Virus record (IMG/VR): IMGVR_UViG_3300014202_001519
Direction: 5' to 3' (one strand)
Length of the DNA stretch: 20,537 nucleotides
From: a virus
Shown piece by piece: positions 3,322-20,212 of this stretch. Position numbers and translations under genes: made by a program. The notes beneath the pieces are model-generated. The model searched no databases and was not told where the DNA came from. It was given only the letters and a program-made list of their open reading frames with translations. Within the stretch, counting starts at the first letter, position 1, and every line of letters begins with the position of its first letter.

Positions 3322-4098
3322 TTATATAGCGGTCAACACCTCATAACCTGATTTGGTTACTAGGATGGTATGCTCGTATTGGGCGGATAATTGATTGTCG
3401 GCAGTACGGACAGTCCAGTAGTCAGTTTCATCAATAAGAACCTCTGGAGTACCAAGGTTAATCATAGGCTCAATCGTAAAGATCATCCCCTCAAACATGA
3501 TAGTACCTTCGTTCTTTTTGGCAACATGACAAATTTGCGGGGGTTCATGAAATTTTACACCTACACCGTGGCCGCAATAAGCTTCAACCACTGTGCAGCC
3601 TTGCAAAATTGCGTAGCTGTGAATTGCATACCCAATCTCGCCTGTCAAAGCTCCAGGTCTTACTTGTTTGATACCTAAATCCAAGCACTTTTTTGTGACA
3701 TTCAACAAGTGTTGTGCGTTTTCTGATATTTTACCAACGGGGAAAGTCGAGGCTGTATCGCCGTAATAGCCGTTTAAAATGGTGGTTACGTCGATACTAA
3801 CCACGTCCCCTTCTTTCAGAGTTGTTTTATCAGGTATTCCGTGGCATACTACCTCGTTCAACGAGATACAACTGCTTTTTGGGAAAGGAGGCTGTTTGGG
3901 GTTATTAAATCCTTTGTATCCCAATGGTGCTGGAATCGCTCCATTGTCTCTGATAAACTTCTCTATTAAACGGTCAAGTTCAACCGTTTCTACCCCAACC
4001 TGAACATGGGGTTTAATGTACTCCAAAGTCGCAGCAGCCAACTTAGAACTGGCTCTAATTCCCGAAATTTGTCTTTCAGTTTTGATAATTATATTCAT
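3322..4098 (-). CDS. map: Methionine aminopeptidase type I
   Basis: SLNEVVCHGIP, IDVT..GYYGDTA, GHGVG..FHEPP, TIEPMIN, SAQYEHT: full M24A metal ligand set. Confidence 0.97.
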   Translation of the reverse strand: MNIIIKTERQISGIRASSKLAAATLEYIKPHVQVGVETVELDRLIEKFIRDNGAIPAPLGYKGFNNPKQPPFPKSSCISLNEVVCHGIPDKTTLKEGDVVSIDVTTILNGYYGDTASTFPVGKISENAQHLLNVTKKCLDLGIKQVRPGALTGEIGYAIHSYAILQGCTVVEAYCGHGVGVKFHEPPQICHVAKKNEGTIMFEGMIFTIEPMINLGTPEVLIDETDYWTVRTADNQLSAQYEHTILVTKSGYEVLTAI

Positions 4099-4910: not shown

Positions 4911-4982
4911 AGCGGCTGATGGGAGTCGAACCCACTGAATCCTGCTTGGAAGGCAGGTGCAAAACCGTTATGCGCCAGCCGC
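4911..4982 (-). tRNA. tRNA-Gly(TCC)
   Basis: Acceptor GCGGCTG/CAGCCGC, anticodon arm CCTGC-CT TCC AA-GCAGG, T loop TTCGACT, U73; no CCA. Confidence 0.93.
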
Positions 4983-9483: not shown

Positions 9484-9774
9484 CTAATCTCCTAACACAC
9501 TATCAATACGCTCATATATTGCTTTCTCTTCTTCTGGTGTCAATACTCGATCTGGAATCGCTTCCAACTGAATTTCAACTGCTGTTCCAGCTTCAATGGT
9601 AGAACACTTAAAACGCCGCCGCTCCCTAATGCCCTTGGCTAAAAGCTCTGCGGCGGGGTAAGTTCCGTACATCATATCGCCATGCTCTACACTCTTGAGT
9701 GTTACATAAGCGATACCGTCACGCATTTGGTCAACGAAACCTTCAAAATTTTCAAGAGTTTGCATGTTCATCAA
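9484..9774 (-). CDS. Hypothetical protein
   Basis: ~96 aa, TAG stop. Confidence 0.7.
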   Translation of the reverse strand: MMNMQTLENFEGFVDQMRDGIAYVTLKSVEHGDMMYGTYPAAELLAKGIRERRRFKCSTIEAGTAVEIQLEAIPDRVLTPEEEKAIYERIDSVLGD

Positions 9775-10237
9775 GCAGGTCTTCTCGCAGACCTGTTAAG
9801 GTTTCACCTAACCAATTTGTCCCACGCCACTTGTCACGATCTTTGGCGTCTTTATCAGTCGCCCTTAACCCAATGCCCCAAATACAATCATAGGGACTCG
9901 CTTCTACTAGCGTCGTCCCCTTCGTTGCCAAGAGTTTTTCTAATAGGTCAGGGTTCTGTGTGAACTTGGCGTAATTGCCTTCGTAAACATATTCCCTGGC
10001 AACGTTGTTCCAACGCTCAGCATTGAAACCTTTAACTTGCCGTCCCAGCTTCTTCTGTTCTTTTGGGCTATCCTCTGCCATAATACGCTCAAGCGTATCA
10101 TAATCATCAAACAGCTTGGCTTTCATCGCCATCATAAACTGCTCAGCACAGTTGTATGTTACGTCATCAAACTTGAATTTACACGGTTCCCATTGAGAAA
10201 ATGGACCGTCCCAAAAGAATGTAAATTGTTCGCTCAT
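9752..10237 (-). CDS. NADAR (YbiA-like) family protein
   Basis: FSQW..C.F..D..YNCAEQFMMAMKAKLF, KKLGRQVKGF, KFTQNPDL, LVEASPYDCIWGIG, GTNWLG..L. Confidence 0.93.
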   Translation of the reverse strand: MSEQFTFFWDGPFSQWEPCKFKFDDVTYNCAEQFMMAMKAKLFDDYDTLERIMAEDSPKEQKKLGRQVKGFNAERWNNVAREYVYEGNYAKFTQNPDLLEKLLATKGTTLVEASPYDCIWGIGLRATDKDAKDRDKWRGTNWLGETLTGLREDLLDEHANS

Positions 10238-11959: not shown

Positions 11960-12354
11960 AGGAATTTCTTTTTCTTCCCCGTTCGAGGAATCAAGTCCTT
12001 ATCCCACATATTAAACATGAAAATACCTGGGAGGTCTTGCGTGAAGGCTCTTAGATGATACCCCCACTTGGGATCGCCTGTTTCAGTCACCGTAGCCCTG
12101 ATATAGTCCTTGATTAGAGAAAATTCACCAGGCTTTACATAGACCTTATCACCAACTTTGAACTTATTAGTTGTGTGCCACTTGGCCCAAACTTCTTCGC
12201 AAACTTCCAAATATGTTTTAATGTTTTCTGGTTTCAGGAAACCATAATGATCTTCAATACCACGCTCCAAACAGAGTCCTTTTAAGTCCTCTCTGGCATC
12301 CTTACCGCACATAAAGATGCGGTCATAAAACAGCATGGTTTCCTGATTAATCAC
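11956..12354 (-). CDS. Hypothetical protein with possible SH3/KOW-like C-terminus
   Basis: KFKVGDKVYV motif. Confidence 0.7.
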   Translation of the reverse strand: MINQETMLFYDRIFMCGKDAREDLKGLCLERGIEDHYGFLKPENIKTYLEVCEEVWAKWHTTNKFKVGDKVYVKPGEFSLIKDYIRATVTETGDPKWGYHLRAFTQDLPGIFMFNMWDKDLIPRTGKKKKFL

Positions 12355-12761
12355 AGGTTATCCATTACTTTTCTAGCGAACAAAAGGTATCTTAAAGGAA
12401 CCAACCCATTGCGGTCCCTAACTTTCCTGCCTTTTCTGAGAGGATTAAACCCATCCCCGCCAAACTGACAGGATGTAAAGTCTACCTCTTCGCCGTTAGG
12501 CAATCTATTCCAGTAATGCGGTTCGCCTTTAATGCGGCCTGTTACGATAACACCGCCATATAGCGCTTGAATTACTGTTGCAGCGGCGGCACAATGAAGA
12601 TAGAGAGGTGACTTTACTCTTTTTCTTCTATATTGTTCAGGCCAGCAAGCAGTGTCTGGACCCGCAGATTTGAGCAGAGCTTTTCGGATTCTAACGCGCT
12701 CTTTTTCCAAGAGCCGTCTGCCATCCACTTGTGACACCACTTTTGATCGCTGTTTGAGCAT
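12351..12761 (-). CDS. YunG-like protein
   Basis: HCAAAATVIQALYGGVIV...HYWNRLPNGEEVDFTSCQF; start uncertain. Confidence 0.65.
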   Translation of the reverse strand: MLKQRSKVVSQVDGRRLLEKERVRIRKALLKSAGPDTACWPEQYRRKRVKSPLYLHCAAAATVIQALYGGVIVTGRIKGEPHYWNRLPNGEEVDFTSCQFGGDGFNPLRKGRKVRDRNGLVPLRYLLFARKVMDNL

Positions 12762-13257: not shown

Positions 13258-13656
13258 TCAATGGTTGTCCTGTAAGTAGAGCCAATTTGCTGTTAGCCAT
13301 ACTCCGATACTGGACAACTTGCCATAAGCTATATAAAGATTCGTTTTATCGCCGTAAGCGTCCCAAACAGCAGAATGCTTGCCGTCTTCAAACCTGTATT
13401 CACCACCCAAATCCGCAACCACTTCCTTGAACTTGGCGACTTTCTCTTCTGGTTTAACTGAATAGACTGCCAACGTATCTCTCATAGTGATACACTTGGC
13501 ACAATCCTTCTCGCTAAATGCGTCGTTACGGAATACCTGTTGTGGAATCTTTCGGCCACAAAGGGTCTTCTTACCATCTATTGTATGATGATTATTCGAC
13601 CACTTGCCAGGGCCGCGAGTAGTCAGGGATTGCCACGCAATACGACGCACCATCAT
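13258..13656 (-). CDS. Hypothetical protein (zinc-binding N-terminus)
   Basis: HH...TLCG...CAKC. Confidence 0.75.
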   Translation of the reverse strand: MMVRRIAWQSLTTRGPGKWSNNHHTIDGKKTLCGRKIPQQVFRNDAFSEKDCAKCITMRDTLAVYSVKPEEKVAKFKEVVADLGGEYRFEDGKHSAVWDAYGDKTNLYIAYGKLSSIGVWLTANWLYLQDNH

Positions 13657-13862
13657 AGGCTCCGCTGATAGTTGATGATATAATCCGCCATATCATCAAT
13701 TGATAAAGGCATTATATCTTCTGTGTCTTCCTTCAATCTAAATAAGTATTCGTCTATGATTAACGCTTCCTTTTCCTGTTCATCAAAATGGTTAATCATG
13801 TTGAAACTATAGCCAAGGTAAAGCAAAGCCTTGTCTACTTTATTGAGCCACACGTTCCTCAT
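13653..13862 (-). CDS. Hypothetical protein
   Basis: 69 aa; ATG 2 nt after tRNA-Ile discriminator. Confidence 0.7.
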   Translation of the reverse strand: MRNVWLNKVDKALLYLGYSFNMINHFDEQEKEALIIDEYLFRLKEDTEDIMPLSIDDMADYIINYQRSL

Positions 13863-13864
13863 AG

Positions 13865-13954
13865 TAGGGGATGAGGGAATCGAACCCCCGCTTTAGCTTT
13901 ATCAGAGCTTACCCGCCGTATAAAAGCGGTGTGCTACCATTACACCAATCCCCC
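13865..13954 (-). tRNA. Atypical 90-nt tRNA-Ile(TAT) with 23-nt extra arm containing a CT-GAT-AA loop
   Basis: GGGGGAT TG GTGT AATGGTA GCAC A CCGCT TTTATAC GGCGG GTA AGCT CTGATAA AGCT AAAGC GGGGG TTCGATT CCCTC ATCCCCT A. Confidence 0.85.
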
Positions 13955-14173
13955 AACATTCAATATTCTTTGCAGATTATATATGGGACTCATGATTTGT
14001 CCCATCAATAATTCTATCTGACGACGATGTTCGTCGTCTTCATCCATAGCCAATCCCACAACAGGTGGGTTAGGTGGCAATCCCATTACAGCACAAGTCT
14101 CGCCGCACTGTAATCCTTCACCAACACCACGCCAGGGATAACCAACCATGATTCTCATTTCTTCATACTCCAC
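13940..14173 (-). CDS. Hypothetical protein
   Basis: 77 aa; stop codon lies inside the tRNA-Ile D arm. Confidence 0.55.
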   Translation of the reverse strand: MEYEEMRIMVGYPWRGVGEGLQCGETCAVMGLPPNPPVVGLAMDEDDEHRRQIELLMGQIMSPIYNLQRILNVGGLV

Positions 14174-16420: not shown

Positions 16421-17038
16421 TTATCTCTTCTTAAACAACAAATTTCCCCATTCCGCGCCACCTTCCCTATCCATATCTACCAACTCAAACCCATAGGGTT
16501 GCAAAAAATCAATATATTGTTGTTGAGTCACACAATCCTTATAATACTCAACCCAAATTACCTCTGTGTATATGTATTTAACACCAGAGTTTTTTAAGAA
16601 CCAATCAGCCCCTTGTAAAGCATGAAGCTCAAACCCCTGAACATCCATCGTCAGCAAAGCATAACTATTAAACCCAAACGGCGTCTCCAGCAACAATTTG
16701 TCTACCGTAATCGTATCAACCTGCACCTTACCAACTTCATAAACGCCATTCGGCATCTTTTGACCGCACGATAATAACGAGTTATTATCCGCATGACTGT
16801 ATAAAAGCAAGTCTGCTTTACCGACAGTATCAGAAATTGCTGCCTTGACAACGTGATGACCAATCCCTAATTTGTGATCTAAAATTGGCCATTTATGGGG
16901 ATTCGCTTCGACCCAAACTACGAATTTTGCGCCAATTTGCTCATAAAATCCCAACTCTTCGGCTTCGTGTGCCCCTAAGTGAAGAACGCCGCCATTGAGA
17001 TTATGTATTTCATTTCTAGCAAAGACTTCTCTATTCAC
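16421..17038 (-). CDS. FkbM family SAM-dependent methyltransferase
   Basis: VLHLGAH..EE, VWVEANP, TITVD, MDVQGFELHALQGA, YIYTEV, WGNLLF. Confidence 0.9.
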   Translation of the reverse strand: MNREVFARNEIHNLNGGVLHLGAHEAEELGFYEQIGAKFVVWVEANPHKWPILDHKLGIGHHVVKAAISDTVGKADLLLYSHADNNSLLSCGQKMPNGVYEVGKVQVDTITVDKLLLETPFGFNSYALLTMDVQGFELHALQGADWFLKNSGVKYIYTEVIWVEYYKDCVTQQQYIDFLQPYGFELVDMDREGGAEWGNLLFKKR

Positions 17039-17657
17039 GCTCTCTCCTGTAGTAATTTACGGTGATTTCATTCACCCAGGTAAACTTGCGTCCTTGCTTC
17101 ATCCACGTTTCAACTAATTGCCAATCATCCTCATAATAATCTGTTTTCCAATTTACGCTCTTAATCAACTCAGTCTTATGAATTAGCATATTCGTGTCAA
17201 CCATTGCTTGTCTTGGCAGTCCATCACCGATAACAGACTCTCTTATTCCTGTAGGCCCAAGCACCTGCATCTTGCTATAGACCCAATCAGCTTCATTAGA
17301 CCTAAGTGCTTCTAATAGTATTTTAAGGTGGTTTGGTAGCCAAACGTTGTCGTCGTCAAGATATGCTATGTATTCGCCTGCTGCTATATAGGTTCCTACC
17401 AATCTAGGTGAAGCACCAGGGCTTAATCCACCACTAAAAGACCGCCAATTCCTACCTAAACTAATTAATTTGCAGTTCTGATTTTGTAATAATTCTTCCA
17501 ATTTTGGGTCAGGACCATCTGAAACTACTATATGTTCAAAATCAGTAAATGTTTGTTCGCTGACTGACTCAATTGCTCTTGATAATTCCTTATGCCTTTG
17601 CCATGTGGCAGTAATTACGCTAATCTTTGGCAGGGGACTTTTCTTTAATTTAAGCAC
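17031..17657 (-). CDS. Glycosyltransferase family 2
   Basis: ISVITATWQR..L..AIESV..QTF.DFEHIVVSDG, YIAYLDDDN, EDDW. Confidence 0.92.
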   Translation of the reverse strand: MLKLKKSPLPKISVITATWQRHKELSRAIESVSEQTFTDFEHIVVSDGPDPKLEELLQNQNCKLISLGRNWRSFSGGLSPGASPRLVGTYIAAGEYIAYLDDDNVWLPNHLKILLEALRSNEADWVYSKMQVLGPTGIRESVIGDGLPRQAMVDTNMLIHKTELIKSVNWKTDYYEDDWQLVETWMKQGRKFTWVNEITVNYYRRERE

Positions 17658-19026: not shown

Positions 19027-19039
19027 AATAAACTCCAAG

Positions 19040-19124
19040 AGTCGGCGGTAGGATTCGAACCTACGCGGTGCTTTCGCACATCGGTTTTGCAGACCGACAG
19101 TTTCAACCACTCACTCACGCCGAC
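19040..19124 (-). tRNA. tRNA-Cys(GCA) with long variable arm (85 nt)
   Basis: GTCGGCG TG AGT GAGTGGTTGAA ACT G TCGGT CT GCA AA ACCGA T GTGC GAAA GCAC CGC GTAGG TTCGAAT CCTAC CGCCGAC T. Confidence 0.88.
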
Positions 19125-19592: not shown

Positions 19593-19664
19593 TGGTCACT
19601 GCTGGGATCGAACCAGCGACCTCCTGAATGTAAGTCAGGCATTCTACCACTGAACTAAGTGACC
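19593..19664 (-). tRNA. tRNA-Val(TAC)
   Basis: GGTCACT/AGTGACC, CCTGA-CT TAC AT-TCAGG, TTCGATC. Confidence 0.93.
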
Positions 19665-20155
19665 AATCGCAACTGCTTGTTCGTAACCGCTCGCTCTTTC
19701 AAATTCTCCAAAGCGTATTCATCATAAGCCTTTGCCGCTTCTTCTGGAGTGACAAACCACCCAATGGTAATGTTTCTTTTCACGCCACCAGATCGCCTAC
19801 ACATAATTGCTCGATATTTCTTTGGGCTATTCCTCCCACCATGAAAATCGACACCTTTGTATCCTGTCTTGCTTCTTACCTGTGCAGGGCACCTTGCAGA
19901 TGCTATGTTGCATTTCAAATGACTAAACCCAACATTCTTAACTTCAAAATACAAATCTTTTGGCGAATTGCTATGCAACCACGGGATTAGATGCTCAATA
20001 CTAAAATCCTTGAACTCAATCCTCTGAAAACAATGAACACAACCAATCCGATCTAACTCGCAGGCTTGTGAGTAAATAATCTTTTTGAGCAAAATGCCAT
20101 AGGCTTTGCCAGTAGACATTCCCAACTGCGTGCTTTTTTCTTTATTACAACCCAT
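19655..20155 (-). CDS. HNH endonuclease with C-terminal AP2 DNA-binding domain
   Basis: CVHC..SIEHLIPW...NVGFSHLKCN (HNH) then SKTGYKGV..YRA..IGWF.TPEEAAKAYD (AP2); start re-assigned to MGCNKE. Confidence 0.88.
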   Translation of the reverse strand: MGCNKEKSTQLGMSTGKAYGILLKKIIYSQACELDRIGCVHCFQRIEFKDFSIEHLIPWLHSNSPKDLYFEVKNVGFSHLKCNIASARCPAQVRSKTGYKGVDFHGGRNSPKKYRAIMCRRSGGVKRNITIGWFVTPEEAAKAYDEYALENLKERAVTNKQLRLVT

Positions 20156-20182
20156 ACTTACCCCTGCAATACAAGAGTAAGT
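20156..20182 (-). promoter_or_regulatory. Hairpin sequestering the RBS of the HNH-AP2 gene
   Basis: Minus: ACTTACTCTTG-TATTG-CAGGGGTAAGT immediately followed by ATG. Confidence 0.6.
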
Positions 20183-20212
20183 GAGCAGTATTTTCAAACA
20201 ATTATTGTCCAG

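Follow-up and report, generated by a model that had tools for sequence, protein, structure and literature searches.

Reading of AUA codons in bacteria normally depends on the essential enzyme TilS, since both IleRS and the ribosome handle a plain UAU anticodon badly. TilS-independent tRNAs-Ile with a UAU anticodon, called Ile3, have been described in Mycoplasma mobile, Bifidobacterium and Neorickettsia (PMC3575796; 10.1101/614032). For the IleRS of Escherichia coli, a UAU tRNA is a poor substrate unless W905 of the enzyme is replaced by Arg, as found in M. mobile (PMC3575796). UAU is also among the commonest anticodons of the allo-tRNAs, which are found in Acidobacteria and other soil bacteria (PMC5389517, PMC7609411). 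Here, we describe a tRNA-Ile(UAU) gene whose long variable region folds into an extra arm presenting a second isoleucine anticodon, GAU. It is located in a 20,537-nt stretch of viral DNA (IMG/VR record IMGVR_UViG_3300014202_001519), referred to below as the window. Measured against the M. mobile type, its variable region reaches 23 nt, so that it is not of the short type.

ARAGORN calls a tRNA-Ile(tat) at 13864-13954 on the minus strand of the window, and Rfam matches RF00005 to 13865-13954 over the full model (1-71) with 56.2 bits, an E-value of 6.5e-10 and a gathering score of 29. Being above this threshold and having a 7-bp acceptor stem, a D arm, an anticodon arm and a 5-bp T stem, the sequence at 13865-13954 (minus strand) belongs to the RF00005 family and is a genuine tRNA with a UAU anticodon. 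The two programs and the sequence delimit a gene of 90 nt up to the discriminator A73 (13865); CCA is not encoded. All its parts lie on the minus strand. In the sequence and in the ARAGORN drawing, the 5' strand of the acceptor, GGGGGAU (13948-13954), pairs with the 3' strand AUCCCCU (13866-13872), with a G1.U72 wobble. The D arm GUGU-AAUGGUA-GCAC (13931-13945) comes from the same drawing. ARAGORN also gives the anticodon arm CCGCU-UUUAUAC-GGCGG (13913-13929), whose loop, read from the sequence as UU-UAU-AC (13918-13924), has UAU at 13920-13922 and canonical U33 and A37. The 23 nt that follow, GUA-AGCU-CUGAUAA-AGCU-AAAGC, can be read from the sequence as a 5' linker GUA (13910-13912) between the anticodon arm and the extra arm, the 15-nt extra arm AGCU-CUGAUAA-AGCU (13895-13909) and a 3' linker AAAGC (13890-13894). 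The loop of the extra arm is at 13899-13905 and its GAU at 13901-13903; besides the sequence, the arm is supported by a helix predicted by RNAalifold and by compensatory changes. One stem strand (4 nt) and the 3' linker (5 nt) make 9 nt, as is canonical between an anticodon loop and the T stem. Finally, the sequence and the range of the Rfam alignment place the T arm GGGGG-UUCGAUU-CCCUC, which includes a G50.U64 pair, at 13873-13889.

This anatomy bears out what an earlier note on this DNA had described, namely a normal 7/5 cloverleaf with UU-UAU-AC (seen by ARAGORN, by Rfam and in the sequence) and a second arm in which AGCU/AGCU closes CU-GAU-AA (a 15-nt hairpin within the 23-nt variable region). 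It had also been claimed that deletion of the UAU hairpin plus GU (19 nt) would leave a nearly canonical tRNA-Ile(GAU) with a 4-nt variable loop. ARAGORN indeed reports the shortened sequence as a 72-nt tRNA-Ile(gat) with this 4-nt loop and A.A at 27:43, and removal of the GAU arm gives an ordinary tRNA-Ile(tat) of 73-76 nt. Folding of the 90-nt tRNA as a single sequence yielded a z-score of -1.1, which is not significant, and a minimum free energy structure that fuses both arms. Since such folding is uninformative here, comparative evidence was used for the extra arm. As indirect signs that isoleucine may be accepted, the sequence has A73, the main loop A35-U36-A37 and the extra loop G-A-U; the E. 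coli minor determinants C4-G69 and C29-G41 are absent from the window tRNA as read from its sequence. ORFs and tRNAs are tightly packed around the gene: the upstream ORF (13940-14173, minus strand) terminates 15 nt within the 5' end of the tRNA, with its stop region at 13940-13942, and the downstream ORF (13653-13862) begins 2 nt past the discriminator, at 13860-13862.

Judged by sequence comparison, GAU in the loop of the extra arm is not due to chance: the architecture is conserved, the stem covaries and the arm is exclusive to UAU. Scanning IMG/VR for TTATA followed by a gap and the T arm of the window tRNA retrieved four other lineages of tRNA-Ile(UAU), 93-94 nt long, all with GAU in the middle of a 7-nt extra-arm loop. 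Their extra stems are unrelated (GCAC/GUGC, CCGC/GCGG, GCGC/GCGC and GCCC/GGGC). A second scan, of viral contigs, was blind to the extra arm (TTATA, a gap of 26-38 nt and a generic T loop) and returned at least 120 loci. The long-form set was composed of all distinct sequences from both scans that ARAGORN calls tRNA-Ile(tat) of at least 88 nt, the window being counted. Among the matches listed, 34 of 36 long tRNAs-Ile(UAU) have a 7-nt extra-arm loop NNGAUNN; of the other two, one has UGGACGA as its loop and one a UUCG tetraloop. Since GAU is kept in these 34 of 36 relatives among the matches listed and the stem undergoes compensatory changes, more than chance must be involved. With a looser regular expression applied to the arm-blind scan, an NNGAUNN loop was found in 27 of 40 long-armed UAU candidates among the matches listed. 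About one-third of the candidates found in this way, again among the matches listed, are without a GAU loop, and at least one other type of long arm is included. A second recurrent type of long UAU tRNA-like sequence without a GAU loop occurs in five viral contigs (L146, L202, L216, L232 and L246); its variable region approximates AGAAAGGGUAACUGGUYACAUG and ARAGORN does not call it tRNA-Ile(tat).

In the alignment of the 36 sequences, pairing at the three inner positions of the extra stem is 97-100%, and double compensatory changes there number 5, 21 and 10. The whole structure reaches a pairing of 95.4% versus 60% in shuffles and a covariation score of 0.865 versus 0.20 in shuffles, a score that 0 of 500 shuffles attained. 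Sliding the partner columns destroys the covariation signal. Both hairpins were predicted independently by RNAalifold, and 40 distinct extra-arm stems were found. Furthermore, a reverse scan of viral sequences that was blind to the anticodon (CAGATTA, a gap and a T loop) gave 114 distinct sequences, 106 of which are tRNAs with UAU as main anticodon. The remaining eight correspond to four sequences that are not tRNAs and four ordinary tRNAs-Leu or -Arg that contain the heptamer elsewhere by chance. Hence, no GAU extra arm was found in the reverse scan on a tRNA with another anticodon (106 of 106 true tRNAs have UAU). According to the earlier note, homologues with variable extra-arm loops would make GAU a coincidence; the idea survived this comparison, with GAU invariant, the stem covarying and the arm found only on UAU tRNAs. 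Close relatives of the window itself were also sought: an exact 24-nt pattern from its tRNA had no match in viral contigs, blastn of the tRNA against GenBank phages yielded no more than a 35-nt match in the T arm, and a search anchored on the neighboring YunG-like protein gave no relative in IMG/VR.

The pooled family comprises 156 distinct sequences: 102 from viral contigs, 52 from contigs of bacterial or archaeal genomes, one from Lactobacillus phage LpeD and that of the window. Its main loop is Y-U-UAU-A-N in 156 of 156 members, including the UU-UAU-AC of the window. The extra arm has a stem of 3-5 bp and a 7-nt loop with GAU at positions 3-5, a description to which AGCU-CUGAUAA-AGCU conforms. 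Between the last nucleotide of the GAU loop and the T stem lie 9 nt (73 members) or 10 nt (83 members) in all 156, the search patterns having permitted 8-13; the 5' linker plus stem covers 4-12 nt across the same members. Since 9-10 nt equals a 5-nt stem strand plus a variable loop of 4-5 nt, the GAU arm stands in canonical register with the T stem. The same holds for the UAU arm relative to the D stem, a single nucleotide (position 26) lying between them. The whole resembles a tRNA in which two anticodon arms follow one another.

The two loops differ in their flanks. The usual extra loop of the family is CAGAUUA, with A at 33 and U at 37, and is seen in the arm-blind sample as well. Among the matches listed from that sample, only 5 of the 34 members with a GAU loop have U at position 33, and most have U, not a purine, at 37. 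With A33 and U37, the usual extra loop is not usable for decoding in most members. The CUGAUAA of the window is the only one of its kind, and the only fully canonical loop, among the 156. The flanks C-A...U-A are strongly conserved in a sample of which part was collected with CAGATTA/AGAT patterns. A73 is conserved in at least 90% of the family and is present in the window. The G1.U72 of the window recurs as G.U at 1:72 in 23 of 34 relatives. More broadly, G1.U72 (or A1-U72) closes the acceptor of most phage tRNAs-Ile(UAU), long and short, and 1:72 is a Watson-Crick pair in the other window tRNAs that were read (Val-UAC, Ala-UGC, Ala-GGC, the three Thr, Arg-CCU and Gly).

The family extends beyond phages. 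A deliberately specific pattern scan covering one genome per species found at least 46 long-form genes. Some of them lie within multi-tRNA arrays (Acidobacteriota, Elusimicrobia and Saccharibacteria); others are solitary, as in Microbulbifer (three species), Marinobacter, Ruegeria (two) and Pseudoxanthomonas (two). The tilS gene was found in all three bacterial genomes carrying the long form that were tested, so that the long-form tRNA is redundant there and not the sole AUA decoder. Bacterial arrays with a long tRNA-Ile(UAU) (L261, L251, L250 and L276) also hold tRNA-Leu genes of 74-78 nt, which have Leu anticodons without the usual long arm and thus represent the reverse anomaly. In Microbulbifer guangxiensis, a DTW-domain gene (L269:3519-4112) is located about 1 kb from the long-form tRNA. 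DTW-domain proteins form a family of tRNA acp3U transferases; the two genes are not linked in any other locus and their proximity is probably a coincidence. Among phages in GenBank, homologues are present in Lactobacillus phages LpeD and Lpa804, where no feature is annotated. A metagenomic relative has a D arm identical to that of the window and nearly the same acceptor, with the extra arm ACC-CAGAUUA-GGU and unrelated flanks. In Lactobacillaceae, a covariance model found the long form in 0 of 151 genomes (few candidates scored), and a pattern search in 0 of 400, apart from one chance match. The chromosomal tRNA-Ile(UAU) of L. plantarum was reportedly not charged with isoleucine in work that Tomikawa and colleagues published in 2018. 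Since the long form was not found in Lactobacillaceae, that experiment probably concerns a short-form tRNA and has no bearing on the two-arm family.

The window is a tRNA-rich part of a giant phage. It contains 13 tRNA genes according to ARAGORN and 14 according to Rfam, all on the minus strand with small ORFs in between, in the order Gly, Thr (three), Val, Ala, Glu, Ile(UAU), Arg(UCU) (two), Arg(CCU), Cys, Val and Ala. This order agrees with that of LR756511.1, an uncultured phage of 595 kb, except that Val(GAC), Ala(GGC), Glu and Cys are missing from the corresponding run there. A YunG-like gene is common to both, with 73% DNA identity. It is located at 12351-12761 in the window, where the small intervening ORFs also encode a methionine aminopeptidase-like M24 protein (3322-4098), a NADAR domain protein (9752-10237), an FkbM methyltransferase (16421-17038), a family 2 glycosyltransferase (17031-17657) and an AP2-domain protein (19655-20197). 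Neither an IleRS gene nor a TilS gene was found among the ORFs of the window. ATA makes up 24% of the Ile codons of the window (13.9 per 1000), AGA and AGG are also frequent, and the tRNAs next to tRNA-Ile(UAU) serve AGA and AGG. Frequent use of these three codons and the side-by-side position of their tRNAs fit a set supplying rare codons.

In the same slot of the gene order, LR756511.1 carries a tRNA-Ile(UAU) of 75 nt with a 6-nt variable loop, no extra arm and a different D arm; its T arm and G1.U72 are common with the window tRNA. Hence, either a long or a short form can be found at this place and the arm is not universally required. Further short phage tRNAs-Ile(UAU) exist besides this copy.

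Several other tRNAs of the two phages deserve mention. A 54-bit Rfam tRNA missed by ARAGORN (4911-4982, minus strand) has the loop CUUCCAA and is a tRNA-Gly(UCC), corresponding to the Gly(tcc) that precedes the Thr genes in LR756511.1. The 86-nt tRNA-Cys(GCA) of the window (19039-19124, minus strand) has an extra arm GUGC-GAAA-GCAC, and the 83-nt tRNA-Thr(UGU) of LR756511.1 (L032:19720-19802) a similar GAAA-capped insert in its variable region. The inserts of these Cys and Thr tRNAs are capped by a GAAA tetraloop, unlike the Ile arm with its anticodon-like 7-nt loop. LR756511.1 also contains, at 220338-220430 (L032:5337-5430, minus strand), a 94-nt tRNA that ARAGORN calls Pro(cgg) and that looks like a tRNA with a CAU anticodon: its loop UUCAUAA lies between GGGGA and UCCCU, with a hairpin of about 21 nt (loop UAUC) just 5' of the anticodon loop.

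The function of the arm is strongly indicated to be tied to isoleucine identity; the specific mechanism set out here is a proposal. To our knowledge, only two things in a cell read GAU specifically, the AUC/AUU codon on the ribosome and IleRS. Confinement of the arm to UAU tRNAs, invariance of GAU amid drift and the register with the T stem together suggest that IleRS uses the arm as an identity handle. The best explanation, which we hold tentatively as close to an even call, is that the tRNA is a TilS-independent AUA decoder whose GAU arm may give IleRS the G34-A35-U36 identity missing from a UAU anticodon. It would be a functional elongator tRNA in which a UAU of the unmodified type reads AUA, so that lysidine synthesis by TilS would not be needed. 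The GAU hairpin would act in cis as an identity element presenting G34-A35-U36 to IleRS. Recognition probably would take place in a conformer in which the GAU arm occupies the normal position of an anticodon arm relative to the T arm and the core, and the UAU arm would be the one presented to the ribosome. We infer IleRS binding, the conformer swap and charging with isoleucine from the conserved architecture. That removal of the UAU arm leaves a tRNA-Ile(gat) valid for ARAGORN also counts for this reading. IleRS reads G34 in a pocket separate from that for A35/U36, and charging is reduced when the anticodon is altered (PMC13752280).

Other data count against the identity handle. Modification t6A37 is a strong determinant for bacterial-type IleRS (PMC9976931), and the usual extra loop, having U37, makes t6A37 impossible there. 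PMC3919564 reports that Bacillus subtilis devoid of both TilS and the canonical tRNA-Ile2 can nevertheless translate AUA; were that so, U34 would not be prohibitive in every case. Moreover, given the short phage tRNAs-Ile(UAU), whose sequences are without it, the arm is dispensable in some settings. Two further observations weigh against the handle: among the matches listed, about one-third of the long-armed UAU candidates from the regular expression have no GAU loop, and in three long-form bacteria the tRNA is redundant because tilS is present.

An unlikely alternative is that the GAU arm serves decoding or modification, either by recruiting or positioning an enzyme acting on U34 or A37, or by curbing the wobble of U34 so that AUA and not AUG is read by an ordinary ribosome. 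The exclusive tie of the arm to UAU tRNAs is also consistent with this role, and an unmodified UAU misreads AUG on E. coli ribosomes (PMC3575796). In addition, conservation of the C-A...U-A flanks suggests selection beyond the triplet, in a sample that was partly collected by pattern. However, no bacterial factor other than IleRS and the codon is known to read GAU specifically, this role would not account for a loop that copies the cognate anticodon, and no candidate enzyme gene is present within the window.

The arm could also be a decoy or sponge for a host anticodon nuclease, toxin or other factor attacking tRNA-Ile(GAU), or a shield from it, a role already suggested in the earlier note and which we find quite improbable. 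Phage tRNAs can counter tRNA-targeting defences, and the extra loop, which usually is without U33 and A37, is not itself a decoding loop. Nevertheless, a decoy could ride on any tRNA, yet 106 of 106 true carriers have UAU; this exclusive tie is what the suggestion does not explain. The family is also present in bacterial chromosomes and tRNA arrays, and we know of no nuclease specific for tRNA-Ile(GAU).

It is very improbable that the tRNA is class II-like and receives its amino acid from LeuRS, SerRS or TyrRS, with AUA being recoded or ambiguous. A long variable region on a tRNA whose anticodon is neither Leu nor Ser would suit this possibility, A73 is compatible with LeuRS, and precedents exist in the nematode nev-tRNA-Ile(UAU) (PMC3333845) and the bacterial allo-tRNA(UAU) (PMC5389517). 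The arm is nonetheless unlike those of class II, with its 7-nt loop and a 3' linker of 5-7 nt, the fold is 7/5 and not 8/4 or 9/3, the discriminator is not G73, and the invariance of GAU is left unexplained.

The earlier note had seen the molecule as bifunctional or switchable. What finds support in this view is a link of the function to isoleucine identity or to the decoding of AUA; dual decoding is conceivable only for the CU-GAU-AA of the window. Two forms of it can be considered. In a two-state adaptor, which we regard as highly improbable, either hairpin would stack under the D stem: GAU in place would allow charging by IleRS and possibly decoding of AUC/AUU, UAU in place would allow decoding of AUA, and one gene carrying its own identity element would serve three Ile codons. 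In an extremely improbable variant, the tRNA is simply two-headed, either arm working on the ribosome so that one gene reads AUA, AUC and AUU. The window loop CU-GAU-AA is a perfect tRNA-Ile(GAU) loop, the form deleted of its UAU arm is a valid tRNA-Ile(gat) and the 3' register is canonical; but decoding by the extra loop is ruled out by the presence of U33 in only 5 of 34 arm-blind GAU-loop members among the matches listed, mostly with U37, and CUGAUAA is unique to the window among the 156.

Equally far from likely is a scenario in which one arm, like an intron, is cut out to leave a tRNA of about 71-75 nt, or in which the anticodon arm was once duplicated in tandem and the extra arm persists as a neutral relic. 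In support, deletion of either arm gives a valid cloverleaf and the corresponding slot of LR756511.1 is filled by a tRNA of normal length. Against it, both loops are under purifying selection, both stems covary across widely diverged members, and neither bacteria nor phages are known to have machinery for excising an insert of this kind. Excision of the UAU arm, which the earlier note had envisaged, is contradicted in particular, since the GAU loop of most members, with A33 and U37, is unfit as a mature anticodon loop and the UAU loop is always canonical. On the grounds given against each of them, excision of the UAU arm, the decoy and recoding to Leu or Ser were rejected as primary explanations.

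If the IleRS handle is true, the arm would represent a new kind of identity element, one that separates the triplet read by the enzyme from the triplet read by the ribosome. With it, one could understand how AUA decoding is supplied by phages and mobile tRNA arrays whatever the host, and both codon reassignment and the making of TilS-independent strains would gain a portable design. Members of the family can go unannotated, as is the copy in the GenBank record of Lactobacillus phage LpeD. No description of a GAU extra arm in a tRNA was found in a search of full-text literature, a corpus that mostly leaves out subscription journals. The sequences collected thus suggest a large conserved family in phages, tRNA arrays and some bacterial chromosomes for which we found no published description.

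By its sequence, the window tRNA would be classified in the tRNA family and, through its anticodon, in the rare bacterial tRNA-Ile(UAU) group; it is neither a class II tRNA nor an allo-tRNA. It resembles Ile3 in its 7/5 cloverleaf, its A73 and a UAU that reads AUA with no need of lysidine. In contrast, Ile3 tRNAs have a short variable loop, with an adapted IleRS (Arg865) in M. mobile, and the window tRNA has a GAU arm. The nematode nev-tRNA-Ile(UAU) (PMC3333845, PMC4300185) also combines UAU with a long extra arm. However, nev-tRNAs are eukaryotic, have a class II arm of the Leu type and accept leucine in vitro; a GAU loop has not been reported in them, and in origin they are not comparable. 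As for allo-tRNA(UAU) (PMC5389517, PMC7609411), it shares a long variable arm with the window tRNA. Its branch is 8/4 or 9/3, its discriminator G73 or U73 and its identity, as inferred, serine, whereas the window tRNA has a 7-bp acceptor, a 5-bp T stem, A73 and a 7-nt GAU loop. Like class II tRNAs (Leu, Ser and Tyr), it has an extra stem-loop between the anticodon and T arms. The Leu, Ser and Tyr arms from the same loci (139 tRNAs) mostly have 3-4-nt loops and 3' linkers of 1-3 nt; a class II arm would be expected to show a loop of 3-5 nt and a linker of about 1-3 nt, but the window arm has a 7-nt loop and a 5-nt 3' linker in the register of an anticodon arm.

In its proposed mode of action, the closest counterparts lie outside tRNAs. 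The operator of E. coli thrS is an mRNA mimic of an anticodon arm that binds its synthetase. Anticodon mimics are also described for mRNAs of yeast aminoacyl-tRNA synthetases (PMC6542539, PMC9956033). By analogy with both, a hairpin copying the cognate anticodon loop may capture the synthetase. These mRNA mimics regulate translation, whereas here the putative mimic lies inside a tRNA and would serve its own charging.
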